IMG/VR virus record: IMGVR_UViG_3300021256_000092
Source of the DNA: an uncultured virus (IMG/VR IMGVR_UViG_3300021256_000092)
Taxonomy: Duplodnaviria; Heunggongvirae; Uroviricota; Caudoviricetes
Direction: 5' to 3' (one strand)
Length of the DNA: 64,000 nucleotides
Shown here: one piece after another, positions 24,056 to 60,858 of the stretch
How the letters are laid out: the number at the start of each line of letters is the position of its first letter
Position numbering within the stretch: the stretch's first letter is position 1
The notes under the pieces: model-generated
What the model was told of the DNA's origin: nothing
Databases searched by the model: none
Seen by the model: the letters and a program-made list of their open reading frames with translations, nothing else
Made by a program: the position numbers and the translations under genes

Positions 24056-24505
24056 ATGGTATTCAAAAAAGCAGAAGTAAAAGATGAATCAAAAAAGGAA
24101 CTGTATTCTAAGCGCGGGAAAAGAGCGAAAAGAAAGGGAGCAAGCTATGAGAGACTTATAGCAGACCTCTTTCAGAAAGCATTCGGGGTAGAATTGAAGA
24201 GAACCCCGCAGAGCGGAGGCTTCGCTAAGAAAAGTACTTTAGCTGATGATTACAGGGGTGACATTACTATTGTCAATGACAGGCTGAAAATGAAACTCCA
24301 TATCGAGTGCAAGAATCACAAGACTTGGAATCTTAAAAAGTGGCTCATGCAGGCAAATTCAGATTGCCCCAAAGGTAGAACTCCAATCGTGGTATTTCAT
24401 GAGTTTAACACTTCAAGGGATTATGTGACTCTGAGCCTTGAGGATTTTCTTAAGCTTGTACCTAAAGACAAAGTATTTGAAAAGAGGAACTTTAACAATG
24501 ATTAA
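24056..24505 (+). CDS. Holliday junction resolvase-like PD-(D/E)xK endonuclease
   Basis: KRKGASYER, RTPQSGG, GDI, IECK. Confidence 0.8.
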   Translation: MVFKKAEVKDESKKELYSKRGKRAKRKGASYERLIADLFQKAFGVELKRTPQSGGFAKKSTLADDYRGDITIVNDRLKMKLHIECKNHKTWNLKKWLMQANSDCPKGRTPIVVFHEFNTSRDYVTLSLEDFLKLVPKDKVFEKRNFNND

Positions 24506-24890
24506 CTTTTTTATGGGTGTTTTATTTGTAGTATGTATTATCATTATTCTTCTTGAGGTTTTCCCTATTGTTCATGTAGATGGTATAAGTATGTTTCCAA
24601 CATACAATAATGATGACTTGCTTATATCTTATCGACTATGTAAAAAACGTGATATTAGAGTAGGAGATATTGTAGTAGCAGAGAGACCCGATGTAAAGAA
24701 GAGGTACGTGATTAAGCGTGTAAGTCTCATAGGTGAAGACCCTGTGACAAAGAAAAGAACTTTCTACTTACTAGGAGATAACAGCAACAACAGTTTAGAC
24801 AGCAGACATTTTGGCGGTGTTTCTGAAAAGCTGATTGTTTCAAAAATCATTTACCCATACAGAATGAAAGAGGAACTGCCGTATGAATGA
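24498..24890 (+). CDS. lepB: Signal peptidase I (S26 family)
   Basis: N-terminal TM; V.G.SM.PT (Ser), GDIVV, YVIKRV (Lys), GDNSNNSLDSRHFG. Confidence 0.92.
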   Translation: MINFFMGVLFVVCIIIILLEVFPIVHVDGISMFPTYNNDDLLISYRLCKKRDIRVGDIVVAERPDVKKRYVIKRVSLIGEDPVTKKRTFYLLGDNSNNSLDSRHFGGVSEKLIVSKIIYPYRMKEELPYE

Positions 24891-25155
24891 TGAATTAAAA
24901 GTATTAAGAATCTCGGGTAAGTCTCCCACAAAAGAAACTGCGGGGAGTATCGTGAAGACCTATGATAGTGGATTTAAGAATATTGAGTTGAGAGCAATAG
25001 GAGCATCTAGCGTAAGTCAGATGGCAAAGTCCATTGCTACCGCTTCAAGTATTTTTGCAAGTAAGGGTTTATCCCTAACCGCAAGACTCGGTTATGATAA
25101 AGTCACTCTAGATGGTGATAAGACAGTTATCATAGCAAGACTCATTATTCAGTAA
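24883..25155 (+). CDS. spoVS: Stage V sporulation protein S homologue
   Basis: LRISGKS....AGSI......IELRAIGASSVSQMAKSIA matches the SpoVS pattern. Confidence 0.85.
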   Translation: MNDELKVLRISGKSPTKETAGSIVKTYDSGFKNIELRAIGASSVSQMAKSIATASSIFASKGLSLTARLGYDKVTLDGDKTVIIARLIIQ

Positions 25156-25168
25156 GGGAGAAGCAAAG

Positions 25169-25546
25169 ATGATAACACTTACTAGAGAGTTTTCTTTTTG
25201 TTCGGCGCATAAATTACCTTACTATGAGGGAAAGTGCCATAACCTACACGGTCATAATTACAGACTTCAAGTGACAGTTAAGGGGGATTTAATAAAAGAC
25301 CCTAAGAACCCTAAATTTGGAATGATAATTGATTTCCATGATTTAGACAGTCTAGTTAAGGAGCATATCATTGAGGATTATGACCATAAATATCTTAATG
25401 ATTTTCTTCCCAACCCTACCGCAGAAATGATAGTTGAAGCAATGGCAAAAGAGATAAAGCTGCATCTTCCCCTTGGAGTGCATCTGCACAGTATGAAGCT
25501 GTGGGAAACAGATGATAGCTTTGTAGAGTATTTAAACGAGTATTAA
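25169..25546 (+). CDS. queD: 6-carboxy-5,6,7,8-tetrahydropterin synthase
   Basis: FCSAHKL..Y.GKCHNLHGHNY, GMIIDF, DHKYLN, PTAE, LWET. Confidence 0.95.
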   Translation: MITLTREFSFCSAHKLPYYEGKCHNLHGHNYRLQVTVKGDLIKDPKNPKFGMIIDFHDLDSLVKEHIIEDYDHKYLNDFLPNPTAEMIVEAMAKEIKLHLPLGVHLHSMKLWETDDSFVEYLNEY

Positions 25547-25558
25547 AAGAGGTATCAA

Positions 25559-26203
25559 ATGTTGTATTTAGATGATATTTTCTGTTCAATACAGGGAGAA
25601 TCCTCATTGTCGGGATTGCCTACTGTATTTATCCGCCTGTTTGGTTGTCCTGTTGGATGTGTATATTGCGACCAACCACAGAACAAAAATTCGCGGAAGA
25701 AGATTTCAATAGCAAATATCGTTAATGAGGTACAGAAGAATTACAGATGGTGTAAGAGAGTATGCATAACAGGTGGAGAGCCTTTGATTTATGAAGATAC
25801 ACTCCCACTTGTGTATGAACTACAATCTTATGGGTATCAAGTATCAATAGAGACTTCGGGGTGCATTCCTATTCAAAAGGATGATTACCGCAGAAGTTTT
25901 ATCTATGTGATGGATGTTAAGACTCCGTCTTCGGGAGTAGTTGAAAAGAACGTCTATGAAAATCTCATCAAGCTACACACAAAAGATGAGGTTAAATATG
26001 TCATAAAAGACCGTAAAGATTATGACTTTATGAAGGGCATAATGAAGCGTTACCCTACACAGGCAAAGATACTTGTAAGCCCCATGTTTAATATGTATAA
26101 CAAAATGCTTATCGGAAATGACCTAGTGAATTGGCTGTTAGAAGATAGGCTTTCAAATATAAGAGTCCAAGTTCAGCTCCATAAGATTTTGGGGGTGAAG
26201 TAA
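25559..26203 (+). CDS. queE: 7-carboxy-7-deazaguanine synthase (radical SAM)
   Basis: IFCSIQGE, FIRLFGCPVGCVYCD, ITGGEP, IETSG, QLHK. Confidence 0.95.
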   Translation: MLYLDDIFCSIQGESSLSGLPTVFIRLFGCPVGCVYCDQPQNKNSRKKISIANIVNEVQKNYRWCKRVCITGGEPLIYEDTLPLVYELQSYGYQVSIETSGCIPIQKDDYRRSFIYVMDVKTPSSGVVEKNVYENLIKLHTKDEVKYVIKDRKDYDFMKGIMKRYPTQAKILVSPMFNMYNKMLIGNDLVNWLLEDRLSNIRVQVQLHKILGVK

Positions 26204-26514
26204 TGGCAGAGAAGTATATTATAAGAAAAATAGGAAAGCCCGCTTGCTATGAGCAACTAGCAGAAGAGTGTTTGGAGTTAGCAAAAGAAGCACTCAAAAT
26301 GGCTAGAATCATGCGGAAAGAAAATCCTACACCTAGAACTCTTGATGAGACTCGGGATAAAGTGATAGAGGAATATGCTGATGTAGTGAACTGCATAGTG
26401 ACTTTGGATATTCCTCTTGATGAAGAAGTCATGGAGCGCAAGATGAAAAGGTGGATAGAGAGAATAAAAGAAAAAGAGGAGGAAGACAATGAGAGCGGTT
26501 CCAATGAGTGTTGA
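26203..26514 (+). CDS. MazG-like nucleotide pyrophosphohydrolase
   Basis: EQLAEECLELAKEALK...IEEYADV. Confidence 0.7.
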   Translation: MAEKYIIRKIGKPACYEQLAEECLELAKEALKMARIMRKENPTPRTLDETRDKVIEEYADVVNCIVTLDIPLDEEVMERKMKRWIERIKEKEEEDNESGSNEC

Positions 26515-26743
26515 AGAAGAGAGATGGAGAGCAGAAGAAGATGCTAGGACTCTTGCAAGAGCAGAAGAGATTAAGGCTGATGCAAAGAGACATGCCAAAG
26601 CTGTTGCACAGGCACAGGCTATGCTCAATGAGCAGAATGACAGATTGAAGAGCCTTAAGAAGATTGCGGGAAGTGAACCCTCTAAGAAGACGAGCAGAGG
26701 GAAAGATATGAACGCAGTTTTCTATGACAGCTTTAGCAGATAA
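26489..26743 (+). CDS. Hypothetical helical protein
   Basis: GAGGAGG RBS; WRAEEDARTLARAEEIKAD. Confidence 0.6.
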   Translation: MRAVPMSVEEERWRAEEDARTLARAEEIKADAKRHAKAVAQAQAMLNEQNDRLKSLKKIAGSEPSKKTSRGKDMNAVFYDSFSR

Positions 26744-26755
26744 GGAGTAGAAGTT

Positions 26756-28144
26756 ATGGAAAAAGATGAAAAGGTCAGAGAAATTTCCAGTGTTTCTCCC
26801 GATACTTTAATACCTGTTGAAGAGAAAAAGGTAAAATTTAAGATTAGCTATGAAAACCTGTTTAGGAATATCAATCAAACAGTAGAGGAAGCTGTTTCTT
26901 CTTTACAGCAAAATTTTCGGGCTGGTGTTGATAGTATATACAATGCTGTAGTAGCTAAGGGTTCAACACCTGCTAGTAAATCCCTTAGTGATGTAGTAGC
27001 CGGGATTGAGAATATTGAAACATCAACAGGTAATGCAAGTGAAGGAGATGTTTTAGCACCTAAGACATTTTCCAATTCAAGTGGAGCTAACAAAACAGGA
27101 ACAATGCCAAATAGGGGTGCTGTCTCACAATCCCTAAATGGTTCTACGACATCCTATACTATTCCCGAGGGCTATCATAATGGTAGTGGTAAAGTATCAA
27201 TAACTACACAGGAAAAGACTGCTACACCTTCTACAAGCACACAAAATGTGACTCCCGATAGTGGTAAAGTTTTAACAAAAGTTACTGTTAATGCAATTTC
27301 AACACAGACAAAAGATGCTTATGCTACTACTTCGGCTCAAGACATAACTCCCGATAGTGGTAAGTATTTGAGTAAAGTAGCTATTGGTGCTATTTCTAAT
27401 TCAAACCTTGCCGCGGGAAATATAAAGAAGGGAACAACTGTTACTGTAAGTAATGGTGACTCTGATGTATACTCTGTAGCGGGAACTTATTCTACCCCAT
27501 CTTCGGGGCAATCTCCTGTTGTAGCAGGAGCAATGCTCAGAGGTTACAGTGGTTTTGTTAATGGAGGTAATGAAGTAAAAGGAGATATTTCATCAAAGTC
27601 AGCGGCCACATATAATACCTCTAATTCCGACCAGTCTATTGCTTCGGGTCAGTATCTTTCGGGAGTGCAGACTATTAAAGCAGTTACTACATCTAATATT
27701 AGTGCGGGGAATATCAGAAAAGGTGTAAATGTAAAAGTCGGAGATGCAAACAATGCGGGAAGAATAGCAAATGTAACAGGTACATGGTACGGAAATAAGA
27801 AAGCCATTTCTGCCTGTGCTTATGAGTTTACAGGTGATAGCTCAAGTAAGTCAGCAGAAGCATCCTTTACGATGCCCGAGAGTGGAATAGTATACTATGG
27901 CGGTTGCTCTGGTGGATGGTATTATGGTGATTCTGATTCTTATGCCACTTGTGCAATTTATAAAAATGGTACATTAATGGATGATAGAAATATAGCAAAT
28001 GGCTCACAGCAATTCCGTGGAACTATGTTCGATAAAACAATGTCTGTTTCTGCGGGAGATGTTATAAAAGTAGTAGCATCATGTAATAAAGGTAACAGAG
28101 GAGACTTTATTATGTCCTGTATGCAAGCGGTATGTATCTATTAA
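26756..28144 (+). CDS. Fibre/spike-like S/T/G-rich repeat protein
   Basis: Repeats TPDSGK.L.KV x2 and N..AGNI.KG x2; TIPEGYHNGSGKV. Confidence 0.65.
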   Translation: MEKDEKVREISSVSPDTLIPVEEKKVKFKISYENLFRNINQTVEEAVSSLQQNFRAGVDSIYNAVVAKGSTPASKSLSDVVAGIENIETSTGNASEGDVLAPKTFSNSSGANKTGTMPNRGAVSQSLNGSTTSYTIPEGYHNGSGKVSITTQEKTATPSTSTQNVTPDSGKVLTKVTVNAISTQTKDAYATTSAQDITPDSGKYLSKVAIGAISNSNLAAGNIKKGTTVTVSNGDSDVYSVAGTYSTPSSGQSPVVAGAMLRGYSGFVNGGNEVKGDISSKSAATYNTSNSDQSIASGQYLSGVQTIKAVTTSNISAGNIRKGVNVKVGDANNAGRIANVTGTWYGNKKAISACAYEFTGDSSSKSAEASFTMPESGIVYYGGCSGGWYYGDSDSYATCAIYKNGTLMDDRNIANGSQQFRGTMFDKTMSVSAGDVIKVVASCNKGNRGDFIMSCMQAVCIY

Positions 28145-28169
28145 ATTTATATTCCGCAATATTTCAAGG

Positions 28170-28357
28170 AATTAATGTGGTGGCGGAATAGACATCAAGG
28201 AAGATGGTAAAAATTGTGTGCTGTGATTACAACAGAGTCAATTAAAAGTAGTCGCTTTATCGAAAATGTATACCTACGGCAAAATGGAACATTAGTAGAG
28301 AGACAAGTAGTCCGTTAAGCTTGTTATGTAAAGTGCAAATCTTTACCCACATTAATT
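28170..28357 (+). ncRNA. tRNA-like structured RNA with expanded arms
   Basis: 11-bp closing stem 28170-28180/28347-28357; TGGCGGAATAG D-arm-like start; T-arm GTAAAG-TGCAAAT-CTTTAC. Confidence 0.55.
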
Positions 28358-28563
28358 TTAGGTGCAAAAGATAAAACGTAGGTGATTAAAATGTTAACAT
28401 TATTAGATGGAATTGTATTAGGCACAGGTGCTATTATCCTCCTTGCTCTAATAGCAATTACATTGTTAAGATGAATTATACTTTTTAGGCGCGAAAAGTT
28501 TAATTCATTTGTAAATTTGTTTGTAAAAAGAGCGCTACAGAGAATGAAGTAAAGGAGATTAGC

Positions 28564-29454
28564 ATGTTATTTATTAATGCACATGCAGATAGATGGGTAA
28601 CAATTAATGGTGTGCACGTTCTCATAGGAGGAAATGATGGACATACTGTTATCAAGGGTCCCGCTAATCTTCTTGGGAAATCCTATGAGTATGCTACAGG
28701 TGGAAAGCCTTTCAGTACTGAACACTATTACCCCGAAAATTCTTATACAAAGAAAGATGATTACAAGGAAGCAAGTGAGAATCTGAGTGAGCATTATAAG
28801 AAAAAGGATGAAGCTAGTAAAGAGTGGCGGGAGCAAAGTGAGAAAGCTGAGAAACAATCTGTACCAAAGCCAAAAGAAGAGTGGGATTTTGATGATGAAG
28901 TAAATAGTCTTTTGGGTGATAAGCCTAGAAAATACACCAAAGGGGGAAAAGAAGCCAAAGAAAAAGCTGATAAAGCCCTAAACAGAATGGTTGCAGAAGA
29001 GAAGTTAATATCTGAGTTCAAGGATGTGGTTGACTTCATTGAGAGTCAAAATGCTAGGATTCAGCGAAACAATTTCTCCCCGAAAGAACTTGTAAGCACA
29101 GACAAGAAAGACTTTGAGGGCTTTAACATAAAGACCACTGGTACTTCATTCGGAGATGAACAGCTTGCAAAGTTCCCAAACAACATCGTTTCCATGACAC
29201 CAAAGGAGTATCTTGAGAGAAGCGCCTATGAAATATTTAATTCTACGATAGAGAAAGCCACAAGAGGTGTTGTACAAGATTCATCTATAGGAAAGTATGC
29301 AGATATGATGAAAGAAGGAACGAAGTTTGACCTACCATACCTCAACTACAAAGATAAAGGGCAAGAGGGAAGACACAGAGCAATCGCCGCAGATATGTTG
29401 GGGATAGCTGAAATCCCTGTTCTCATTATTGGCAGAGAAGTGCGCAAAAAGTAA
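28564..29454 (+). CDS. Putative virion-packaged protein with INAHA leader, WVTINGVHV motif and C-terminal ParB/Srx-like motif
   Basis: AAGGAG RBS; MLFINAHADRWVTINGVHVLI; QEGRHRAIAA...IPV. Confidence 0.55.
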   Translation: MLFINAHADRWVTINGVHVLIGGNDGHTVIKGPANLLGKSYEYATGGKPFSTEHYYPENSYTKKDDYKEASENLSEHYKKKDEASKEWREQSEKAEKQSVPKPKEEWDFDDEVNSLLGDKPRKYTKGGKEAKEKADKALNRMVAEEKLISEFKDVVDFIESQNARIQRNNFSPKELVSTDKKDFEGFNIKTTGTSFGDEQLAKFPNNIVSMTPKEYLERSAYEIFNSTIEKATRGVVQDSSIGKYADMMKEGTKFDLPYLNYKDKGQEGRHRAIAADMLGIAEIPVLIIGREVRKK

Positions 29455-29521
29455 ATAAGTGTTATTATGAAGTGAGTAGTGGAAAAAAGCTACTCACTTT
29501 TATTTTATAGGAGAATCAAAT

Positions 29522-31183
29522 ATGGAAAAGATTGTAGTACTTAATAGTGGTGGTTTTGATAGCGTTGTATTACTTCATAAATTACGCATCTTTGATAGAG
29601 ATGATAGGGAGATTCATTCTCTTCATTTTCATTTCGGCGCATTAAATGAAAAGCAACAGCAGAGATGTGTAGATAAGGTTTGTGAGAAGTTAGACCTCAT
29701 TTCTAAAGTAATTGAGCTACCTAAGATAGATTGGACTAAAAGAGATTTTTACTCGGGAAAAGGTAAAGACCTCTCTAGTGGTTATTTAGAATACCGTAAT
29801 TTAATCTTTCTTTCTTATGCAATTTCTTATGCCGAAAGTATCGGAGCAAAAGAGATTTACACTGCAATCCTTAAAGGGGGAATATATACAGATACCAATC
29901 CCTTATTCTTTAAAGGGCTTAATTCTTTCCTTGAACCAAACAGTGGGATAAAGATTATAACCCCTTTTGATAATCTTACTAAAGTTGATATAACCTATAT
30001 AGCTTCTACTTGTTGTATTACTCCTGAGGATTATTTTAGTTGTGATACACCTAATGAGAATGGAGAGCCTTGTGGTGAGTGTATGCAGTGTGAGGAGCTT
30101 AAAGAAATTAATGAGCACCTTACTATTAATACACCACTTAAAGCCTTTTTTGCCTCGGGAAATGATTTCTGCGACCCTACTTTTAAGGAGTTATTGAGCA
30201 AAGAGAAAATCTATGAGGTAAGAGCTTTAATCAATAATGACTGTCAGTTAAAGTGTAAGCACTGCTTTTATGGATTCGAGAGCATGAAGTCCGAGCCTGT
30301 TTCAAAGGAGTTATACTATTCTGCACTTAAAGATTTTGTCCTTAAGCATGGAGTAGAGAATATCCATTTCAGCGGAAAAGAACCTTTATTTGACGATAAA
30401 ATTCTGTGGTATGCACATAAGATACAAGAAGATAAACTCCCATGTACATTTAATCTTGTCACTAATGGAATCAATCTCCCAAAATATGTTTCAGAATTGA
30501 AAAATTGCGGCATGAACAGAGTTTATCTAAGTGTCGATGATATACTCAACACCAATGGTGTGAGAAGTGTTCATGCTGTAACTGATAAAGCTATTAAGGC
30601 TTGTAATGAAGTAGATATTCCTGTTGAGGTATTTATTGATATTCATAATAATAACTATAATAAGCTTGAAAATATTGTAGAATATTTGGAGAGTAATTTT
30701 AAAATCGACAGATACTATGTCCGTACAATTAGAAGTATAGGAAACGCTGAGAATTTAAGTCTACCAAAAGGAAAAGAGCTTGAAGTAGCATGGAAACAAA
30801 TAAAATTTCTCGCCGATAAATACAAAGATAAGGAATTTGAATTTAGTGTAAGTATAGAATACACTGATGAGATAAGAAATACCGAGCTTGAAGAAGATAT
30901 AATTACTTGCGAGAATTGGTACACATCTAAATTTAGAGAAAACCTTTTTGTTCACCTTGAAAGGTTCTGTTACAGATACACAGATACCTATACCCTTACT
31001 CCCGATGGTTATTTACTTGGATGCGCAAGTGAAGTTTCTCTCCCTAACTATGATGAAGTGAGTGTGGGAAATATAAAAGACCACTCAATAGATGAGTTAG
31101 TAGCGAGGGGAAGAGAAGTAAGTAAGAAATGCAATGACTGTTATATGGAAAAAGAATTAGCTTGTAAATGTAAATATCTTTAA
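29522..31183 (+). CDS. queC: QueC (preQ0 synthase) fused to a radical SAM domain with SPASM/twitch-like C-terminus
   Basis: SGGFDS, YRN, Cx8CxxCxxC; then CQLKCKHC, FSGKEP, VTNG, LSVD, TLTPDG...C, VGNI, CNDC. Confidence 0.88.
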   Translation: MEKIVVLNSGGFDSVVLLHKLRIFDRDDREIHSLHFHFGALNEKQQQRCVDKVCEKLDLISKVIELPKIDWTKRDFYSGKGKDLSSGYLEYRNLIFLSYAISYAESIGAKEIYTAILKGGIYTDTNPLFFKGLNSFLEPNSGIKIITPFDNLTKVDITYIASTCCITPEDYFSCDTPNENGEPCGECMQCEELKEINEHLTINTPLKAFFASGNDFCDPTFKELLSKEKIYEVRALINNDCQLKCKHCFYGFESMKSEPVSKELYYSALKDFVLKHGVENIHFSGKEPLFDDKILWYAHKIQEDKLPCTFNLVTNGINLPKYVSELKNCGMNRVYLSVDDILNTNGVRSVHAVTDKAIKACNEVDIPVEVFIDIHNNNYNKLENIVEYLESNFKIDRYYVRTIRSIGNAENLSLPKGKELEVAWKQIKFLADKYKDKEFEFSVSIEYTDEIRNTELEEDIITCENWYTSKFRENLFVHLERFCYRYTDTYTLTPDGYLLGCASEVSLPNYDEVSVGNIKDHSIDELVARGREVSKKCNDCYMEKELACKCKYL

Positions 31184-31336
31184 TTTCCTCTAACAAAATA
31201 CAGTATCTAGGTTGTTTTTAGAAACGTATATTGGTAGAATAGCATTAGATTAAAAATTGGATTTGCAGATAGTGTTTATTAGTATTCCCTACTGCACTAC
31301 GAACTTTAATCAAATACTATATAGGAGGAAAAAGCT

Positions 31337-31603
31337 ATGATGTTCATTATCAATGCACACGCTCAGGGCGGTGGCGGTGGACGTAATGGAGGTGGAGGAT
31401 ATGCCCCTCGTAGAGAAGTTGCACAGATGGCCGCCGACAATGTAAGAGCAGCTGGTGGAAGTGCTTCTAGAGCACAGAGAGCCTTCAACAACGTTATGAA
31501 CGCAACTGGTGCCACAACCGTAATGGACCTTAGAGGTGTTGGCGGAAGACGTGTTAGCGGGAGAGGCGTATCTAGAGCTGCTAGAGCAGGCATCAATTCC
31601 TAA
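31337..31603 (+). CDS. Small Gly/Arg/Ala-rich basic protein with INAHA leader
   Basis: AGGAGG RBS, own terminator; MMFIINAHAQGGGGGR... Confidence 0.75.
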   Translation: MMFIINAHAQGGGGGRNGGGGYAPRREVAQMAADNVRAAGGSASRAQRAFNNVMNATGATTVMDLRGVGGRRVSGRGVSRAARAGINS

Positions 31604-31610
31604 GAAAAAG

Positions 31611-31634
31611 AAGCGGTCATTTGACCGCTTTTTT
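31611..31634 (+). terminator. Rho-independent terminator
   Basis: AAGCGGTCA...TGACCGCTT followed by a T run. Confidence 0.75.
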
Positions 31635-31683
31635 CTTTTAGTTTATAATAGTCTCTATCTTAGTAGAAAGGAGAGACGAAGCT

Positions 31684-31836
31684 ATGACAAGATATTATGG
31701 CGCAGAAGGTGAGAGAGTACTTATTCAGAACCTTAAGCGTGCGGACAAGAGTGATGAAGAGATTAACAAGGCAGTACTTAACTTCCGTAGCATTGAAAAT
31801 GCAAGCGTAGTTGATACTTCAACACTCAACAAGTGA
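31684..31836 (+). CDS. 50-aa hypothetical protein (not in ORF track)
   Basis: AAGGAG RBS; MTRYYGAEGERVLIQNLKRADKSDEEINKAVLNFRSIENASVVDTSTLNK. Confidence 0.55.
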   Translation: MTRYYGAEGERVLIQNLKRADKSDEEINKAVLNFRSIENASVVDTSTLNK

Positions 31837-31929
31837 TTGATTCTCTTAGGCAGACCTAGTAGATTAACTCTACTAGGTCTTTTTATGTTATAATCCCTTT
31901 AACCGAAAAATTTTATGGAGGAATTAATC

Positions 31930-32496
31930 ATGAATAAAGAAACAAAGATTAGTGAAATTGAAGAGCACTTAAAAGCTATAAGTGATATTTTGGGAATAGA
32001 AGAGACAGAAAGTAATAAGGACACCCCGAGCAGAATAGCAAGAATGTGGGTGAATGAACTTTTTGAGAACAATAAAAAGAGTTTGTGGGAACTCGATAAA
32101 GCAATGACATTATTTCCTAACAATGATACTGATTCTGAGGAAATGATAGTTATGAAAGACATAAGATTCAACTCAATGTGTGAGCATCATTGGATGCCTT
32201 TCTTCGGCACTGTCAATGTAGGATATATCCCCGACAAGACTATCATAGGGCTTTCAAAAATCCCTAGAGTTGTGCGCTTTTTCAGCAGAAAGCCACAATT
32301 ACAGGAGAACCTTACCAAAGAGATAGGAGAATATCTTGTAGATATTTTGAATCCTAAAGAACTCTATGTCATTATGGAAGCCACCCATACATGCGTTATG
32401 TGTAGGGGCGCTGAGAGTGAATGCACCACTAAGACAAAATTCTGTTTTGGCGATAATAAGGGATATAAAGAGTTTTTAGCTATGTGTAAGGAGTAA
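31930..32496 (+). CDS. folE: GTP cyclohydrolase I
   Basis: DTPSRIARM, SMCEHHWMPF.G, GLSKIPR, QLQENLT, HTCVMCRG. Confidence 0.95.
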   Translation: MNKETKISEIEEHLKAISDILGIEETESNKDTPSRIARMWVNELFENNKKSLWELDKAMTLFPNNDTDSEEMIVMKDIRFNSMCEHHWMPFFGTVNVGYIPDKTIIGLSKIPRVVRFFSRKPQLQENLTKEIGEYLVDILNPKELYVIMEATHTCVMCRGAESECTTKTKFCFGDNKGYKEFLAMCKE

Positions 32497-32499
32497 AAT

Positions 32500-34488
32500 A
32501 TGCCTAAGTTCAAAATAAAGAAAGTATCTGAAGGTAATTCTGCCCCTAAAAAAGTTGAGGAAAAGAAGTATGACAATATTCGAGATGTAATGGATTACAC
32601 TAAAGATTTTTCTATTTACTTCTCGGGAGTTGAGAACAAAGCATACTTTGATGGTTGCTATGAAATGGGTGTAAGAAATTTTCTTATGTCCTATCATTAT
32701 TTACAAGGAACTACTTTAAAGACAAAATTAAGTGGCACAGATGTAAAGCTACTGATAGATTCGGGAGCTTATACGTATCAAGTTGACCCTACTTTCAGAG
32801 AAAAAGAACCTGAATTTTGGGAGTCTCTAATAAAGAGATATTTACATTGGGCTGAGAAGAACAGAGACTATATTTTCGCTATAGCAAACCTTGACATAGA
32901 GAATATTGTCGGCGGTGAACTAGTAAAGAAGTGGAATGAGCAATACTTCGAGCCATTCATGTTAAGAACAGGAATACCTGTATGTTTTATTTGGCATGAA
33001 GAAACGACTCTTCTTTCTTGGGAGCAGTATTGTCAGAGATACCCTTATGTGGGAACTTCTTTAGTTATGGATTCAAAAGATTTCATGAAAATCAATGAAA
33101 TGCTGAAAGTCGCAGAAAAGTATAAGACTCTAGTTCATGGAATGGGTACAACTAGAACTTCCATTCTCCCAAAACTCCCATTCTACACCGTAGATTCAAC
33201 TTCATGGAAAGCGGGATTCAGATATGGTCAGATAGCTATATGGAATGGAACTAAAGTACAGTTAAAGGGAAAAGAAGACTTTGAGACTAAAGTATTCCCT
33301 GTGATTGAAACCTATAAGGATATACACCCACCTTTAGACAAAGAAAAAATCGCAAAATATGATGAACCCGAGGTACTTAGATGTAATGTCTATGCTTATT
33401 TAAAAGCCGAGGAATACATAAGAGAGAGACTAAAGCCTCTGACCTATTGGAAGAAGCAAGAAGCAAAGACTAGAAGTTCTATGGATGATGTTGTGTTCCC
33501 TAGTGCTGAGTGGTTCAGTAATCCCGAAGCGCAAGAATCTGAGTGGGAGAAGTACGCAGACGAGTTTAACATAAGCAAAGAGAACAAGGGACAATCTTTA
33601 GACCTTATCTGTGATATGACTATCTTTATGAATTGGGATAATCCCGAATATCAAGAGTATAGAGACAGTGTTTATACTCCCGAAATTCTTAAAGAGCTTC
33701 ATGATATGTTCATCAATAAGATGGTGGAGAATGATGAGCAGAGAGTCGAGGACTTGATTAAGTTCTACAAAGATAATCTGTTTGGAAAAGATACTACACT
33801 TCTTTATTTAGGCACTAATTTTGACCGTAAAGTTCGGGAAAGAGACGAGTACCTAGAAGATGATGAGTATGACTATGTGGACGCTTCTGAGAGCGAAATA
33901 GAGCAGATAAAAGCTAAATTTCTGCCGACTAATTCAGAAGCACCTGAGATAGACAGCTTGGATGATGAAATATTTGAGAGTGAAGGAATAGTTCCTGTAA
34001 GAGATGCGAGTGGAAAGTTCCTAAAAGGACAGCACAAAGTATTGAAGCCCAAATTGGTGTACTCTAAGAAGTTCCCTAAACTCGCCTGTGATACCTGTTA
34101 CATGGCGCAAAAATGCCCGCAGTATAAACAAGGATATGCCTGTGCATATAACAAGATATTTGATAAGTTCAATACAAGAGATATGGGTGATATTATTCAA
34201 GCCATGCAAGGTATCGTAGACTTCTCCATGAACCGAGTACAGAGAGCAATGATGGCTGAAATCCTTTCGGGAGGAATCCCTGATGCTAATACCTCTGCAC
34301 TTATGGACCAATCCATGAGATATTTGAATCAGTTAAAGCAGATGTATGAGTATGGAAATGCCGAAGTATTGAGACAGACCAAAACTGTTAAAGCAGATGG
34401 CACTCAAGAGATGACTACTCAGATAACCAATCCTACAGAAGGCGGAATACTCTCAAAGATTTTCGGGAATATGAATAATTCAAACTGA
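32500..34488 (+). CDS. dpdA: DpdA-like (TGT-fold) DNA deazaguanine transglycosylase with long C-terminal extension and Zn motif
   Basis: LLIDSGAY, NLD, IWH, VHGMG, VDSTSW; C-terminal CxxC-x5-C-x8-C; adjacent to folE/queC. Confidence 0.75.
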   Translation: MPKFKIKKVSEGNSAPKKVEEKKYDNIRDVMDYTKDFSIYFSGVENKAYFDGCYEMGVRNFLMSYHYLQGTTLKTKLSGTDVKLLIDSGAYTYQVDPTFREKEPEFWESLIKRYLHWAEKNRDYIFAIANLDIENIVGGELVKKWNEQYFEPFMLRTGIPVCFIWHEETTLLSWEQYCQRYPYVGTSLVMDSKDFMKINEMLKVAEKYKTLVHGMGTTRTSILPKLPFYTVDSTSWKAGFRYGQIAIWNGTKVQLKGKEDFETKVFPVIETYKDIHPPLDKEKIAKYDEPEVLRCNVYAYLKAEEYIRERLKPLTYWKKQEAKTRSSMDDVVFPSAEWFSNPEAQESEWEKYADEFNISKENKGQSLDLICDMTIFMNWDNPEYQEYRDSVYTPEILKELHDMFINKMVENDEQRVEDLIKFYKDNLFGKDTTLLYLGTNFDRKVRERDEYLEDDEYDYVDASESEIEQIKAKFLPTNSEAPEIDSLDDEIFESEGIVPVRDASGKFLKGQHKVLKPKLVYSKKFPKLACDTCYMAQKCPQYKQGYACAYNKIFDKFNTRDMGDIIQAMQGIVDFSMNRVQRAMMAEILSGGIPDANTSALMDQSMRYLNQLKQMYEYGNAEVLRQTKTVKADGTQEMTTQITNPTEGGILSKIFGNMNNSN

Positions 34489-51794: not shown

Positions 51795-52865
51795 ATGAAG
51801 CGAAACGAACTTATCAGAGGTATTGAAGCAATCAGCGAGGGTCTTGAGATTATCAAGAATGCATTAATGAGTGAAGATGCACCAGCAGTAGAAAGGATTG
51901 TTGATGAGCCGAAGACAGAACCGAAGACAGAGGCAGTTTCAGAGAGCAAGTATTCAAGAGAGGAACTTACTTCAATGAAGTATAATGAACTCAAGAAACT
52001 TGCCAACAACGCAGGTGTTTCAGCTACAGGAACAAGAGCAGAGATTATCGAGCGCCTTTTAAATGCTCCCGCAGAAGCAGAAGAGAGTGAGGGAGTTGAG
52101 GGCAAGATTAATCCACCTGTAGAGCCTAAAGAGAAGGTAGTTCCTATTTCAAAGGGCAAGAAGAAGCTCTCCAAGAAGTCCAATGACATTGCGGAAGAAA
52201 CTATCGACAAGAAATATCTCGATATGGCAAATTCAGCCCTTGAGGATATGACCGAGGACGATATGAAAGAGATGCTTGAAGAGTCCGAAGTCGAGATTGA
52301 AGATGATGAGACAGTAGTTCATGCCTTTGCAAGAGCGCTTTCAGAGGGCAAGATTGAACCCGCAGACGATGAAGAAGAGGAAGAAGAAAATGAAGAAGTT
52401 GAGTCCGAAGAGGAAGAAGATGATTCAGAAGTTTCTGAAAATGACGAGGAAGAAGATAGCGATGAAGTAACAGGAGAAGACTACTTCTCAGACTATGATG
52501 AAGATGGCGTCAATGATTACTCCGGCGACTACATGACAAAGAAGAGAAAGAAAGCCATGATTGCTTGGCAGACAAAGTTCCTTGAAGATTACGATAAGGA
52601 CAAGATTACACTTGATGAAGTGACCGAAGCCGTTCAGACTCTTTGTACACAGGATGAACTTGACAACCTTGATGCCGACAAGGAAGAAGATATTGTATGC
52701 ACCTACATGGAAGTCATGAAGAGATGCATCGACTCCGATGGTGAGTTACATGAGGGCGGTGACGCTTATGAAATCAACGATGAGTATTTCTGCTGTGGTC
52801 ATAAGCTGAAAGAAGTAGACGGTAAGTTTGTATGTGAAGTTTGCGGTGCTGAGTACGAGCAGTAA
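51795..52865 (+). CDS. Highly acidic protein with SAP/Rho-N-like motif and C-terminal Zn finger
   Basis: MKYNELKKLA...GVSATGTRAEIIERL; D/E tract; FCCGH...CEVCG. Confidence 0.65.
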   Translation: MKRNELIRGIEAISEGLEIIKNALMSEDAPAVERIVDEPKTEPKTEAVSESKYSREELTSMKYNELKKLANNAGVSATGTRAEIIERLLNAPAEAEESEGVEGKINPPVEPKEKVVPISKGKKKLSKKSNDIAEETIDKKYLDMANSALEDMTEDDMKEMLEESEVEIEDDETVVHAFARALSEGKIEPADDEEEEEENEEVESEEEEDDSEVSENDEEEDSDEVTGEDYFSDYDEDGVNDYSGDYMTKKRKKAMIAWQTKFLEDYDKDKITLDEVTEAVQTLCTQDELDNLDADKEEDIVCTYMEVMKRCIDSDGELHEGGDAYEINDEYFCCGHKLKEVDGKFVCEVCGAEYEQ

Positions 52866-55404: not shown

Positions 55405-55489
55405 TTCATAGACAAGATTCTTCAAATATCTTATACTTTAGGCAAGGTTTTCCTTGCCTATTTTTTATGTATGTAAACGAGGTATCATA

Positions 55490-57217
55490 TTGAAGAAACT
55501 AATATCACTATCTAGGCAGACAAGGAGATTATGCCTTAGATTTTCAAAAAGAATTTCAAAACTTGCCATAAGACGTGCAGAAGCGGGCGGTATAAGTACT
55601 ACAGATTTAGTAAATAAAATTTATACTTTCTGTGAAGTGTATTCGGGAATAACCCTATATAAATACCAAACGCAGTTTTCCAAGCGTATCATTAGGTCTG
55701 TGCTAGAGAATGATGGCGCTGAATTAACAGCCCTGTTTGCAAGACAGAGTGGTAAGACCGAGACAATATCTGTAACAGTAGGCGGGCTTATGATTATTCT
55801 CCCACAGCTTGCAAATATGCCAATGTTCGCAGATGATAAGAGACTCATAGCCTACAAAGTGGGCTTTTGGGTAGGAATATTTGCGCCAAACTTAAGGCAG
55901 AGTCAGATTACTTTCCGCAGAATGAAATCAAGAATGCAGAGTAAAGAAGCATTGGCGGTACTGAATGACCCCGAGTTTAGATTAGCATATTCAACCTCTA
56001 ATGGTCAGACAGTAGCTTTGTCTAATGGTTCTTATGTTACTGCTATTTCAGCATCAGACGGAAGTTCAATCGAGGGTGAAACCTTTATGTTCATTATCAT
56101 AGAGGAGTGTCAAGATGTTTCTAACTACAAAATTAGAAAATCAATTCACCCGATGGGTGCGGCTTACAATGCCACTATCTGTAAAATTGGAACACCTACC
56201 ACTTTCAAGGGCGATTTCTATGAAACAATCGAGCGTAATAAGAAAGCTTTTAAAGAGGGTAAGTTAAGAATAAGAAATCACTTTGAGTATGATTATGAAG
56301 TGGTCGAGAAATATAATCCTAAATATGCAAAGTATGTAGAACGTGAGAAGAGAAGTTTAGGAGAGAATTCAGATGAGTTCCAGATGTCTTATAAGTTGAA
56401 GTGGGTAATCTCCCGAGGAATGTTCGTTGATATTCTCAAGTTTGAAAGAGATTGCGGAGATGAATTACTCGATTTAGTATCAAGTGATTTGTTTTCAGAC
56501 CATGTAGCAGGTATAGACATAGGTGGTGGCTCTTCAAATAACTCACAAGAAGCGGATAGTACTGTGATAACAATAGTCGAAGTCGATTGGGATTCTCCCG
56601 CTATCTTAGAGCATACAACAGATGAAGAGACAGGTGAGGATATTGTGTATGAAGCCTACAACACTTATGTGAAGGCATGGATAGAGATAAGCCCCGAAGT
56701 TGCCCGAGATTATAATGAGCAATATGTGATGATTATGGATGTTCTATCCCGCTTCAAGATAAGAAAGGCGTTCATTGATGCCACTAGAGAAGCTAGTTTG
56801 GCTCAGAGAGTTGCGGCGAATGTAAAGTTCCCTGTAGTACCTTTTGTATTCTCAACTAAATCAAAGTCGGAGATGTATAAGAACCTAGACAGGGAGATAA
56901 ATTCCGCAAGATTACATTTCCCTGCAAGTAAGGAAGCAAAAGATACAAAAGAGTATGATAAGTTTATTTTCCAATTTGCTAACTTACAAAAAGGCTACAG
57001 TGGAAGTAATATGATAGTAAGTCATCCCGCAGAAAGAGGAGCGCATGATGATTACTGTGATTCTTTGGCACTTGCAATATTAGCATCAAGAGAGCGCGGG
57101 CAGATAGATGAGACAGAAACACAATCAAGAAATGATGTGTTTAGAGTAAAGACACAATCGAGCAGATATGGAATGAGAAATAGCAGAAACCTTTTAACTG
57201 CAAGAAGGAGGGCGTAA
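55490..57217 (+). CDS. Terminase large subunit
   Basis: ARQSGKT, IIEECQD, GTP, GIDIG, HDDYCDSLALA; TTG start after GAGGT (track start 55454). Confidence 0.92.
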   Translation: MKKLISLSRQTRRLCLRFSKRISKLAIRRAEAGGISTTDLVNKIYTFCEVYSGITLYKYQTQFSKRIIRSVLENDGAELTALFARQSGKTETISVTVGGLMIILPQLANMPMFADDKRLIAYKVGFWVGIFAPNLRQSQITFRRMKSRMQSKEALAVLNDPEFRLAYSTSNGQTVALSNGSYVTAISASDGSSIEGETFMFIIIEECQDVSNYKIRKSIHPMGAAYNATICKIGTPTTFKGDFYETIERNKKAFKEGKLRIRNHFEYDYEVVEKYNPKYAKYVEREKRSLGENSDEFQMSYKLKWVISRGMFVDILKFERDCGDELLDLVSSDLFSDHVAGIDIGGGSSNNSQEADSTVITIVEVDWDSPAILEHTTDEETGEDIVYEAYNTYVKAWIEISPEVARDYNEQYVMIMDVLSRFKIRKAFIDATREASLAQRVAANVKFPVVPFVFSTKSKSEMYKNLDREINSARLHFPASKEAKDTKEYDKFIFQFANLQKGYSGSNMIVSHPAERGAHDDYCDSLALAILASRERGQIDETETQSRNDVFRVKTQSSRYGMRNSRNLLTARRRA

Positions 57218-57220
57218 GAG

Positions 57221-58834
57221 ATGATTCCTAATTTTAAGAGAAGAGCAGGTACAGATTCTATTCTTGGGAGAGGACTCAGTACTGCTTACAGTAGTGGAGA
57301 TTTGACCGCAGAAGAACAGCAGAGACTTGAAAGAATACAGCAAGCGTGGAACTTCTATGAGGGTTATCATTGGGAAGGTGTCGATGATTTAGGGAGTCCA
57401 CAGGTTACTTTCAACTATTGTAAGCCTTTTATCAACAAGTTTGTTTCTTTTGAGTTCGGTAGTGGCTTTACAATCAATTCTCCGAGACTTCCCGAAAATG
57501 TGTTAGATGAAGATACTAACCATGATGGTGTAGTAGAGGGAGAAGAAGTAAAAAATATCTCGCCCGAAGACATAGAGTTCAAAACTGTAAAAGAACAGGT
57601 GGGAAATTTCCTCAATAGAGTATGGGATGAAAACTCAAAAGAAGAGCTGTGTGTAGAAATCGGGCAGAATAAATCCATAACAGGAGATGCATGGATAAAA
57701 GTCATGTATGAATCTCCCGAAGAGATGGAAGATATATTTGATGAGAATCCCGAGGGTAAGATAAGACTCGAGGTATTCCCTACTCAATATATGTTCCCCG
57801 AGTTTGATGAGCATGATAAGAAGAGGATGATTAATCTTCTTATCATGTATCCTATTTCAGTAGAGAGAGAAACAGGAATACTCCGCAGAAAGAATAAGTT
57901 ACAGACTATTCTTTATAAAGAACTTTGGACTAAAGAGAAAATCACCATTTATCACGGCGCTGATGTTATCTCAGAAGAGGACAACCCGTATGGATTCATT
58001 CCTTTCGTACATATCAAGAATTTCATTATCTCGGGAAAGAATTTCGGCGCGAGTGATATTGATGATATTATCCCTCTGAATGTGGAAGTAAACACAAAGA
58101 GAAGTGATGTGTCGGAAATCATAGATTACCATTCAGCCCCAATAACGTGTGTTTATGGCGCTAAGATAGGAAATCTTGAAAAGGGCGCTAACAAAGTATG
58201 GGGTGGTCTTCCTAAAGATTCAAGAGTAGAGAACCTACAGTTACAGGGTGACTTACAGGCATCAACACAGTATATCAAAGACCTTAAAACAGCTATGTGT
58301 GAGATAGGTGGAGTTCCTGAGACAGTACTTGGTGGTGCTAGTGCCATAAGTAATACAAGTGGTGTTGCTTTGCAGTACATGAACTTGCCTTTGGTAGAGA
58401 AAACAAAAATAAAAAGAGCGTGCTCAGAATCGGGCTTAGTGATAGTAAACAAGATGATACTCAAAATAGCATTACAGATGGGATTTATCGAAAAACCCGA
58501 AAATATGTCTATGAAAGAGTTTCTATATAACAAGGTTACTCTTCCCGATACACTTCCAAAGGATGAACTTATTGAGTTACAGAAGATTCAGCAAGAGATG
58601 CTTATGGGTCTTGAATGCAGACATGGTGCAATGGAGAGACTTGGAAAAGAAAACATCACTTCTAAGCTGAATGAGATAGATGTGGAGAGAGAAGCGCACC
58701 CCGAAATTTTCAATAGTGCTTTGCAACAGTTAATCTATCAGAACAAGCTCAATAGTGGCATGACTAATGGTGAGACTCCTGTAGAGCAAGTCCGTAAAGA
58801 AGTAACTGGTCAAAATGGTGGCGGAGATATATAA
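57221..58834 (+). CDS. Portal protein (SPP1 gp6-like)
   Basis: FYEGYHW, NPYGFIPFVH, G.SDI, SNTSGVAL; follows terminase. Confidence 0.88.
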   Translation: MIPNFKRRAGTDSILGRGLSTAYSSGDLTAEEQQRLERIQQAWNFYEGYHWEGVDDLGSPQVTFNYCKPFINKFVSFEFGSGFTINSPRLPENVLDEDTNHDGVVEGEEVKNISPEDIEFKTVKEQVGNFLNRVWDENSKEELCVEIGQNKSITGDAWIKVMYESPEEMEDIFDENPEGKIRLEVFPTQYMFPEFDEHDKKRMINLLIMYPISVERETGILRRKNKLQTILYKELWTKEKITIYHGADVISEEDNPYGFIPFVHIKNFIISGKNFGASDIDDIIPLNVEVNTKRSDVSEIIDYHSAPITCVYGAKIGNLEKGANKVWGGLPKDSRVENLQLQGDLQASTQYIKDLKTAMCEIGGVPETVLGGASAISNTSGVALQYMNLPLVEKTKIKRACSESGLVIVNKMILKIALQMGFIEKPENMSMKEFLYNKVTLPDTLPKDELIELQKIQQEMLMGLECRHGAMERLGKENITSKLNEIDVEREAHPEIFNSALQQLIYQNKLNSGMTNGETPVEQVRKEVTGQNGGGDI

Positions 58835-58907
58835 TCATAAAAGTTCACAGGAAGCCCTAACTACTAGATTTTGGGATTTTTGTGTGTTAGTATAAATTTA
58901 AAGTCAA

Positions 58908-59741
58908 ATGGAGGAAAAATTAATGAAGTATTCTAATCGTGGCATTTTCGTAGGAATGAGTAGTGAATTTGCAAAGGCAATGTTTGGCAAGATGATGCTC
59001 AATGCTAGAGCAGAGGAAAATCCTAATCCCAATTCTAATCCCGACCCCAACAATCCAAATGGTGGCAATCCGACACCCGCACCCACAATCAATTATGAAG
59101 ACCTTATTTCTAAAGCGCGGGCAGAAGAAAAAGCGAAACAGTACAAAGAGATTGAGAGGTTAAAGACTCAGATTCAGACCCTTACTGAACAGCATAACAA
59201 GGATTTGCTTGTTGTAGCTGAACTGAATGAGAAGAGTAAGGCGCTTGAGACTAAACTTACAGAAGCGGGCAAGGGAGATACCGAACAGGTTAAGACTCTT
59301 AAGAGTGAGATTGAGAACCTTAAGACACAGGTTTCAACTCTTACTGCTGAAAACGAGGAACTTAAGAAGAACACCGTTGAAGAGTCCGAGGTAGAAGCTA
59401 GAGTAAGAGCACAGTTAGAGGCAGAGTACACAGTAAAGAACCACAAGGTTGAAATCCTTGCACAGCATAAGGATGATTTGCTTGTCCCCGAGCTTGTTAT
59501 GGGTGATACAGTTGAAGCACTTGATGCATCACTTGAACAGGCTCTTAAGAGAAGTGAAGAAATCCGTGCTAAGATTGGCGGTACTAAGGAGAAGAAGACA
59601 ACGACCCCTACAACACGTACTGCAAAGAGTCCGAGTGCAGGTGGTGATTCTATAGGAAACTATTCTGCTGAGTATATCGCTTCTTTAGACCCACGTTCTG
59701 AGGAATATAAAGAGTTCCGCAAGAAATTGGGTTTAAGATAA
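58908..59741 (+). CDS. Capsid scaffold protein
   Basis: Long coiled coil between portal and capsid; ends EYKEFRKKLG. Confidence 0.75.
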   Translation: MEEKLMKYSNRGIFVGMSSEFAKAMFGKMMLNARAEENPNPNSNPDPNNPNGGNPTPAPTINYEDLISKARAEEKAKQYKEIERLKTQIQTLTEQHNKDLLVVAELNEKSKALETKLTEAGKGDTEQVKTLKSEIENLKTQVSTLTAENEELKKNTVEESEVEARVRAQLEAEYTVKNHKVEILAQHKDDLLVPELVMGDTVEALDASLEQALKRSEEIRAKIGGTKEKKTTTPTTRTAKSPSAGGDSIGNYSAEYIASLDPRSEEYKEFRKKLGLR

Positions 59742-59805
59742 ATAAGAAGAACTGCAACCAAAACCATTAAATAAAAAGCTACAATTTCCTAGGAGGTTAG
59801 TGTAA

Positions 59806-60858
59806 ATGAAAAAGTACACACTTTTGGCATTAATTCGTGCTTTAGCACTTAATGCTTCTTTAGCAATTAATGCTTATGCTGATGTTACAACTGCGGTCTC
59901 AACTGAGAATCAGGGTGTTCCACTTTCAGCGGCAATTCGTGCAGTATATTCAAATGAAATCGAGTTCAAGGCTCTTCCACTCATGCGTTTCGCTCAGTTC
60001 GCTACTGAGAAAACAGAGTTAGGAACACAGCCGGGTCTTTCCATCTCAATGCTGTCATATGACAACCTTAAGCTTGGTGGCAAGCTTGTTGAGAATGTGC
60101 CTATGCAGTCACAGGCTCTTGCAGGTTCTCTCAAGCAGATTACCGTTACTGAGCATGGTAACGCAGTATCAAATTCTGAACTTCTCATTGAGTCTTCTTT
60201 CGATGATGTTATGGCTACAACCACAACTCTTCTTGGCAGAGACTACGCTATGGTTCTTGATACAGAGCTTCGTGATACAGCTCTTTCGGGAACAAATGTA
60301 ATCTACGCAAGAAAAGCGAACGGAACAGTAGTTACAAGCAGAGCAGGTCTTATCGACGAGTGTACCTTTAAGGTATCTACTGTTAAGGATGCTCTTGAGA
60401 TTCTTTCAACAAACAATGCTCCAAAGCGTGAGGGCTATTGGATTTGCTTTGTTCACCCACATCAGAGCAGAGGTCTCAGAGATGATTCTACTTGGATAAA
60501 TGCCTCAAACTACGGCGCTCCCGAACAGCTTTTCAATGGTGAGATTGGAAGAATTGATGATACTCGTTTCATTGAGACTTCTATCATGTCAAACGGCGCA
60601 GCTTCCGCAACAAATCCGGCTTATGATGAGACTCTTGTTCACGGCTATGAAGATGCAGACCACAATGTAAACGCAGTTGATGTTTACAAGGCTTGTATCT
60701 TTGGTGACAGATACTACGGTATCGCTTGGGCGCTTCCTGTAGAGCTGAGAGATAATGGCATACAGGACTACGGACGTACACGTTCCCTTGCTTGGTACGC
60801 TATCTATGGTACAGGCATTCTGAACAATGATTACGGTGTAGTTATCGAGACAGCCTAA
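59806..60858 (+). CDS. Major capsid protein (N4 gp56-like HK97 fold)
   Basis: RFAQFA...ELG..PG, EHGNAV, FVHPHQ, GEIGRIDDTRFIET, DYGR...LAWY. Confidence 0.9.
   Translation: MKKYTLLALIRALALNASLAINAYADVTTAVSTENQGVPLSAAIRAVYSNEIEFKALPLMRFAQFATEKTELGTQPGLSISMLSYDNLKLGGKLVENVPMQSQALAGSLKQITVTEHGNAVSNSELLIESSFDDVMATTTTLLGRDYAMVLDTELRDTALSGTNVIYARKANGTVVTSRAGLIDECTFKVSTVKDALEILSTNNAPKREGYWICFVHPHQSRGLRDDSTWINASNYGAPEQLFNGEIGRIDDTRFIETSIMSNGAASATNPAYDETLVHGYEDADHNVNAVDVYKACIFGDRYYGIAWALPVELRDNGIQDYGRTRSLAWYAIYGTGILNNDYGVVIETA

Follow-up and report, generated by a model that had tools for sequence, protein, structure and literature searches.

Phage assembly has a classic checkpoint in the proteolytic trimming of its head proteins, for which phages rely on dedicated prohead proteases or, in the case of phage 80alpha, on a host ribosomal protease. 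Phage T4 has the prohead protease gp21 and capsid-targeting leaders on its internal proteins. Signal peptidases act on the outer membrane face, and TraF of plasmid RP4 is a dedicated S26 peptidase for pilin. The host enzyme of the 80alpha system is Prp (MEROPS C108), an L27-processing cysteine protease with the site motif MLxx(D/N)LQ(F/L)F'A(S/H)KK, according to passages of a review (PMC9405229), and 80alpha copies this site closely (passages of PMC9405229 and PMC5744158). An alternative L27 protease, Rrp, is described in part of a recent preprint as an Ntn hydrolase, not an S26 enzyme. Here, we analyse 64,000 nucleotides of DNA from an uncultured virus (IMG/VR record IMGVR_UViG_3300021256_000092), a stretch called the window throughout and belonging to a BCD7-like myophage. 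Four of its proteins, namely the major capsid protein, the scaffolding protein, and the products of open reading frames (ORFs) 28564 and 31337, begin with a short leader ending in [IL]-N-A-x-A, and the same phage encodes a mini signal peptidase I of the S26 family. As the best single explanation, we propose that this S26 enzyme processes the leaders, a reading we put just short of probable.

Leaders in the window and across the BCD7-like clade

In a six-frame scan of the window, [IL]-N-A-x-A was matched five times, always in coding frames of the plus strand (Table 1). Four of these are the N-terminal matches listed by an earlier, sequence-only reading of this stretch, and each was recovered at the position given there. 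The fifth match falls inside ORF 51795-52865, some 90 residues from its start and where a SAP domain ends, and we take it as chance. Strong ribosome sites precede all four leader-bearing start codons; 6-9 nucleotides upstream of the ATGs, AGGAGG is found for the capsid gene and ORF 31337, while AAGGAG precedes ORF 28564 and AGAGGA precedes the S26 ATG at 24498.

Table 1. Coordinates of the leaders, the S26 gene, and associated features in the window
Feature	Position	Strand	Remarks
PDDEXK_15 nuclease gene	24056..24505	+	Pfam PF24608, E 9.8e-23; conserved neighbour on the upstream side of S26
Mini signal peptidase I (S26), 130 residues	24498..24890	+	Pfam PF10502, E 3.9e-17; Ser31/Lys73 dyad
SpoVS homologue	24883..25155	+	Pfam PF04232; conserved downstream neighbour of the S26 gene
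Accessory protein, 296 residues (ORF 28564)	28564..29454	+	8-residue leader 28564-28587; W-V-T-I-N-G N-terminal module
[IL]-N-A-x-A	28573	+	ends at residue 8 of ORF 28564-29454
Arg/Gly-rich basic protein, 88 residues (ORF 31337)	31337..31603	+	9-residue leader 31337-31363
[IL]-N-A-x-A	31349	+	ends at residue 9 of ORF 31337-31603
[IL]-N-A-x-A	52059	+	within ORF 51795-52865, end of SAP domain
Terminase	55454-57217	+	head module
Portal protein, SPP1 gp6-like	57221..58834	+	Pfam PF05133, E 1.3e-29; no protease gene after it
Scaffolding protein	58908..59741	+	leader ends at 59012 (residue 35); homologous to BCD7 gp101
[IL]-N-A-x-A	58998	+	ends at residue 35 of ORF 58908-59741 (scaffold)
Major capsid protein	59806..60858	+	25-residue leader 59806-59880; PHROG 1357, E 2.2e-53
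[IL]-N-A-x-A	59866	+	ends at residue 25 of ORF 59806-60858 (capsid)

Relatives were sampled by a capsid profile search, which gave 80 IMG/VR loci. All low-GC loci with a capsid identity of at least 58% have a small-x-Ala leader ending on the capsid protein, and also on the scaffold where this is readable. Such a leader is missing from the more distant relatives, which comprise low-GC loci whose identity is 45-56%, loci of the high-GC actinophage-like kind, and the phages BRock and BS162P1 (the latter from Bacteroides). In BCD7, leaders ending in (Asn/Thr)-Val-x-Ala occur on five proteins, which are the capsid, the scaffold (gp101, ending in Thr-Val-His-Ala), a tail-tube paralogue (gp092), gp023, and gp024; a tail tube protein with the same leader type is present in G002, G006, and G020 as well. 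The capsids of the window and BCD7 share 57.5% identity from residue 27 on, with the alignment beginning just past the leader.

The leaders of the clade end in (Ala/Val)-x-Ala. Every leader read has Ala at -1 and, apart from a single Ser and a single Thr, either Ala or Val at -3; in an unconstrained MAFFT alignment of 25 capsid proteins, the -1 Ala (capsid Ala25) forms an invariant column. Position -2 varies inside a single genome (Tyr, Arg, and His in the window; Phe, His, and Tyr in BCD7), and the flavour of -4 and -3 is genome-specific across unrelated substrates (for instance, Lys/Arg-Ala, Asn/Thr-Val, or Thr-Ala). A position-frequency table served for the spread at -2 and +1 only, as it picks Ala at -1 by construction and mis-picked the capsid leaders of L047 and L015. 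Small residues at -1 and -3 with a free -2 are the substrate rule of signal peptidase I. Moreover, a position matrix trained solely on the capsid and scaffold leaders of other contigs was run over 227,933 positions in ten genomes, and its 16 top matches all lie inside the first 52 residues of a protein. Non-homologous proteins are among them, such as small basic proteins, the tail-tube paralogue of BCD7, and the products of ORF 28564 and ORF 31337. The leader motif is heavily enriched at N-termini, and these comparisons support the leaders as a conserved, portable feature of the whole phage clade.

In character, some capsid leaders resemble real signal peptides; those on the scaffold, the tail tube, and the small proteins are either amphipathic or just 6-11 residues long. 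In the G015 capsid (L047:2414-3388), the leader has been swapped for a canonical L27/Prp-type motif, with the scaffold leader being of the clade type and S26 kept. This case shows that one leader type can take the place of the other, and it leaves Prp in play as a rival.

The leaders are likely to be cleavable propeptides. That they are never removed, and are retained as a common assembly, chaperone, or membrane-association tag, strikes us as very unlikely. This is despite the example of 80alpha, whose scaffold leader is needed for assembly and whose capsid and scaffold cleavage is dispensable for viability, according to passages of PMC5744158. The strict Ala at -1 and Ala or Val at -3 would make little sense if no protease read them, the homology shared with leaderless relatives begins just past the motif, and six-residue leaders on protamine-like proteins would make improbable binding tags.

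The mini signal peptidase

The S26 gene lies about 35 kb upstream of the head module, amid recombination and 7-deazaguanine genes. It is intact, as the sequence-only reading had described; it has a PF10502 match, an invariant Ser/Lys dyad, and a modelled membrane helix. Across 46 aligned sequences, there is no variation in Ser31 (the nucleophile of the S-M-x-P-T box, present in BCD7 and G002), nor in Lys73, Arg74, Gly93-Asp94-Asn95, Ser99, Asp101, Ser102, and Arg103 of the K-R and GDN..S.DSR boxes. The AlphaFold2 model (predicted local distance difference test score of 88.6) consists of a membrane helix at residues 2-21 and a small beta domain. Its best matches in the PDB by Foldseek were SpsB (4wvi) and LepB (1t7d) (E of about 1e-4 and probability 1.00), along with SipA and human SEC11; the matches to LexA/UmuD were weaker.

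A profile search with S26 gave 589 relatives, the best 120 of which are all 100-142 residues long and in many cases sit on 75-85 kb contigs. In near-complete leader-bearing genomes, the phage enzyme has 116-150 residues, and an N-terminal hydrophobic stretch of 17-28 residues is found in 58 family members. By comparison, the host signal peptidases in bins of metagenome-assembled genomes (MAGs) with clade phage contigs are open frames of 170-415 residues that match the full Pfam model, whereas the phage S26 covers this model in two pieces only. With the S26 of the window as query, tblastn had no match among 50,697 phage records, and the BCD7 homologue surfaced only via the Pfam model; with the BCD7 and G002 enzymes as queries, BCD7 was the only cultured phage retrieved.

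Gene order around S26 is also kept. The upstream PDDEXK_15 gene holds its place in G002 and the partial contigs L213, L226, and L205. SpoVS directly follows S26 in BCD7 (gp032/gp031), G008, G009, G010, G012, and G015, with an NrdD gene in between in G002 and G006, and BCD7 likewise has the arrangement S26-SpoVS-QueD-QueE. A predicted complex of S26 with capsid residues 1-60 scored 0.01, which is not evidence either way. Co-variation of S26 residues with Ala or Val at -3, considered in 12 genomes, was set aside; a few columns separate the two classes, but the comparison is confounded by phylogeny.

Co-occurrence of leaders and S26

The presence of S26 was scored by PF10502, and genomes at least 90% complete were counted as near-complete. 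On this basis, S26 is found in all 12 near-complete leader-bearing genomes (BCD7, G002, G006, G008, G009, G010, G012, G013, G015, G016, G020, and G045), with G020 counted as leader-bearing by its tail-tube leader alone, its capsid gene being cut by the contig end. It is found in none of the four complete leaderless relatives, none of ten incomplete ones, and neither BRock nor BS162P1. Leader-bearing fragments include four that are S26-positive (G007, and G041, G042, and G043, the last three of which were found through S26 itself) and six without a PF10502 match (G001, G011, G014, G017, G018, and G019). By these counts, S26 is a core gene whose range coincides exactly with the leader-bearing clade, and the co-occurrence of motif and peptidase across related phages, put forward as a check by the sequence-only reading, is borne out at 12/12 against 0/4, with all positives in one clade.

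The most telling case is G021, the nearest leaderless relative, with a capsid that is 52% identical. Here, the order PDDEXK-SpoVS-QueD-QueE is kept, yet the S26 slot between PDDEXK and SpoVS is empty, and the capsid, scaffold, and small basic protein have no small-x-Ala ending. From this gene order, G021 would be a natural deletion of S26.

No mini-S26 was found outside the clade that could serve as an independent replicate, the small-type matches all being within it. Other S26 matches came from jumbo-phage-like IMG/VR contigs of 103-316 kb (L219-L224), in which three protease-like genes are consecutive. These are a subtilisin-like gene, an S26 of 152-160 residues whose N-tail is rich in Lys/Arg, and a trypsin-like gene; the outer two are labelled by sequence motifs only. 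With its greater length, canonical tail, and place between two protease genes, the jumbo-phage S26 is a different setting.

Candidate proteases for the leaders

Between the portal and capsid genes there is no protease gene, as the sequence-only reading had noted. In the ORF list, the 73 nucleotides that separate portal and scaffold are free of genes, and Pfam scans of 95 window ORFs and 108 ORFs of the 98%-complete G002 gave neither prohead proteases of the S78/HK97, S77/T4, or ClpP/S49 types nor any protease family other than S26. In addition, the Prp family (PF04327) was matched in none of 11 phage genomes. Removal of the leaders by some other protease, whether a phage protein that escaped recognition or a cytoplasmic enzyme of the host, with S26 merely co-inherited with the clade, is a reading that we consider unlikely, while giving it real weight. 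More than half of the window and G002 ORFs lack a family assignment, which leaves room for such an enzyme, and the outward topology expected of S26 makes a cytoplasmic one attractive. On the other hand, no candidate emerged, nothing else in the cytoplasm would obviously read the small-x-Ala rule, and in G021 the loss of the leaders coincides exactly with an empty S26 slot.

A host enzyme that must be named is Prp, which, as in 80alpha, would cut between -2 and the conserved Ala, leaving S26 with an unrelated job in the envelope or sporulation. The invariant Ala is most often preceded by Phe or Tyr, and all Prp sites have Ala at P1'. The G015 capsid even has a textbook Asn-Leu-Gln-x-Phe'Ala, so a Prp site can occupy this position. 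Moreover, in staphylococcal phages, the Prp motif is on the capsid, scaffold, and major tail protein, which are the same classes (passages of PMC5744158). However, the published motif (as given in passages of PMC9405229) has a Leu-Gln-(Phe/Leu)-Phe core that the leaders of the window, BCD7, and the clade lack, with the G015 capsid as the sole exception. Many leaders have Lys, Arg, or His at -2, where Prp needs Phe or Leu, and in L048, L049, L054, and L158 entire substrate sets have Lys, Arg, or Leu there.

The presumptive hosts were approached through five MAG bins with clade phage contigs, binning being weak evidence of host. Both Prp and a long L27 are present in four of the five; here, the L27 extension is canonical and adjoined by the Prp gene, and the phages binned with it have leaders that do not resemble it. 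The fifth, G038, with an 86-kb clade phage contig, has an L27 without room for an extension and no PF04327 match, although binning is not proof of host. In this bin (L181, a Clostridia-labelled MAG), the L27 frame opens two codons before Met-Ala-His-Lys-Lys, which would be unusual for Firmicutes if the bin is clean. The tight co-evolution of Prp and L27 stressed in passages of the review (PMC9405229) also speaks against Prp. Altogether, we judge cleavage by Prp to be improbable.

Membrane topology and the proposed mechanism

Apart from the Prp-type site of the G015 capsid, several points weigh against S26 as the maturation protease, and foremost among them is topology. The 15 residues that follow the S26 helix are acidic across 58 family members (a mean of 2.6 Asp/Glu versus 0.5 Lys/Arg), and these charges would favour the usual outward-facing catalytic domain. 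Only a subset (BCD7, G009, G010, G012, G015, G016, G007, and L196) has Arg or Lys directly after the helix and none before, with charge counts that lean towards a reversed orientation. The N-terminal tail of S26 in the 58 members is 0-5 residues long with at most one Lys/Arg, and the two host signal peptidases compared have longer, Lys-rich N-tails. As the capsid proteins are cytoplasmic and the canonical enzyme faces outward, a meeting of enzyme and substrate is problematic. Nor could export bring the leaders to an outward-facing active site, since most of them are too short or too charged for Sec signal peptides, with some having only 6-8 residues. Leaders of 6-8 residues are, moreover, at or under the size usually handled by signal peptidase. 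Also unfavourable is the position of the S26 gene, which lies amid DNA-metabolism genes beside SpoVS and outside the late operon. All genomes with leaders and S26 form one monophyletic clade, so their co-occurrence amounts to one evolutionary event. Finally, a literature search on phage signal peptidases in capsid maturation returned nothing relevant and no cleavage data.

Nonetheless, the specificity logic favours S26, as do its standing as a core gene, its absence from the G021 slot, and the want of other candidates; as another client for the enzyme, a canonical exported protein conserved across ten genomes was looked for and none was found. The maturation role assigned to S26 by the sequence-only reading thereby stands in part. 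The specificity pattern, the core gene, and its being the sole recognisable protease speak for it, and the outward-leaning topology and single clade against it. We infer cleavage itself, the exact bond, S26 as the agent, and the encounter of enzyme and substrate.

In the mechanism that we propose, a set of virion-associated proteins would start out with an N-terminal propeptide, short and either basic or amphipathic, that ends in (Ala/Val)-x-Ala. In the window, the carriers would be the major capsid protein, the scaffold, the protamine-like Arg/Gly-rich protein, and the accessory protein with the W-V-T-I-N-G module, with the tail tube added in relatives. The mini S26, with its one membrane helix, would cut after the final Ala and remove the propeptide, replacing the missing prohead protease in the role that host Prp plays for 80alpha. 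Enzyme and substrates could come together in either of two ways, through a catalytic domain on the cytoplasmic side or through hydrophobic leaders that draw the proteins to the membrane. The sequence-only reading had also let the leader mark proteins for processing and packaging. Of this, packaging is too narrow a term, given that the tail tubes of BCD7, G002, G006, and G020 carry the leader, and cargo targeting is only partly right.

In its widest form, which we advance more tentatively still, a large and mostly uncultured clade of Firmicute myophages may have recruited a mini signal peptidase I as its virion-maturation protease. Pseudo-signal peptides would then sit on the capsid, scaffold, tail tube, protamine-like core proteins, and add-on effectors, with the active site being cytoplasmic, or with the proteins parked at the membrane and freed by cleavage.

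Accessory leader-bearing proteins

Neither ORF 28564 nor ORF 31337 belongs to a Pfam or PHROG family. Beyond the module at its N-terminus, the ORF 28564 product has a long helical hairpin and then a C-terminal domain with a conserved QEGRHRA motif. Foldseek gave only weak matches to its model (ParB/sulfiredoxin/Osa-like, E 0.35-3), and a VIA search with this model was dominated by the helical hairpin. No homologue is present in the nine other genomes compared, and a large protein database has 16 others (17 listed, including itself). At the identical junction, one of these (P0127) carries a leader of another type, Lys-Ala-Tyr-Ala, and the rest begin directly at the W-V-T-I-N-G module. Since the leader at one junction differs by flavour or is absent, it can be regarded as a portable add-on matched to its phage. 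In P0139 and P0140, a 30-residue W-V-T-I-N-G-x-H-V module is placed atop an unrelated C-terminal part of 320 residues, which suggests that this module is a common adaptor for various payload domains.

Counterparts of ORF 31337 with leaders of 6-11 residues are found in BCD7 (gp023 and gp024), G002, G006, G008, G009, G010, G012, and G015. As with ORF 31337 in the window, gp023 and gp024 of BCD7 lie between QueC and the GTP cyclohydrolase gene. A by-eye likeness had raised L27 mimicry by the small Arg/Gly-rich proteins, but this was rejected, as ORF 31337 has no L27 match in Pfam at E up to 10.

Layout of the window

All genes of the whole region are on the plus strand, and the head module has the order terminase, portal, scaffold, and major capsid protein (Table 1). 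Window positions 25169-34488 form a 7-deazaguanine DNA-modification cluster with QueD, QueE, QueC, GTP cyclohydrolase I, and a DpdA-like transglycosylase. Here, QueC is fused to a radical-SAM domain (29522-31183, 553 residues), and ORF 28564, ORF 31337, and a 462-residue repeat protein (26756-28144) are inserted amid the cluster genes. A reverse transcriptase gene (RVT_1, E 1.2e-12) lies at 866-2053, and G002 likewise has one, beside tail-fibre-like genes; this is possibly a diversity-generating retroelement. No convincing coding-strand ORF is seen at 35900-36400, 37100-38050, and 40730-41780, and no tRNA genes were found across the whole window. For the tail tube of this phage, which would lie past base 64000, the sole matching metagenome contig stops about 1.1 kb beyond the window, and the viral collection gave no match.

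Significance and comparison with known systems

If our proposal is true, a phage-encoded signal peptidase would be a new enzyme class for head-protein trimming; a literature search found no report of a signal peptidase as a virion-maturation protease in a tailed phage. It would either tie virion assembly to the membrane or reveal a signal peptidase of inverted topology. Moreover, a sequence rule, that of a small-x-Ala leader together with a mini-S26 gene, would predict virion and possibly injected proteins in gut and environmental phages, with at least 589 S26-family proteins in public data for the phage group behind it. As BCD7 is a cultured member, the idea is directly testable, and the mature N-termini expected under the two main models, cleavage after or before the conserved Ala, differ by a single residue.

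Compared with T4 and its gp21, the clade likewise has one leader type for the capsid, scaffold, and small basic proteins, the last of which may be internal proteins. In contrast, no S77 or other head-protease family was found in the window and G002 scans, the motif differs, and the clade leader is also on tail tubes, hence it is no address for the head interior. Another parallel, that of a small accessory S26 that serves few clients, is SipW, which processes TasA in Bacillus subtilis (PMC10269814). However, the clients of SipW and TraF are exported, while those here should be cytoplasmic, and neither system involves virus particles.

With the bacterial S26A enzymes (SpsB, LepB, and SipS), the phage enzyme shares the fold, the Ser/Lys dyad, boxes B, D, and E, the N-terminal membrane helix, and the -3/-1 small-residue rule. 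It differs in having about 120-130 residues, against 170-415 in the host open frames, and hardly any charged N-tail, and its presumed substrates are cytoplasmic virion proteins lacking a Sec-competent hydrophobic core.

In design, the clade also resembles 80alpha, which likewise has no prohead protease gene, a common leader on the capsid and scaffold, and a separate scaffold with no delta domain. In its staphylococcal relatives, the leader is on a major tail protein as well (passages of PMC5744158). Yet the clade motif is small-x-Ala, unlike the L27-like Leu-Gln-Phe-Phe'Ala of 80alpha. The clade phages also encode their own membrane-anchored Ser/Lys S26 protease, and they add to the leader carriers the small Arg/Gly-rich proteins and the accessory protein.

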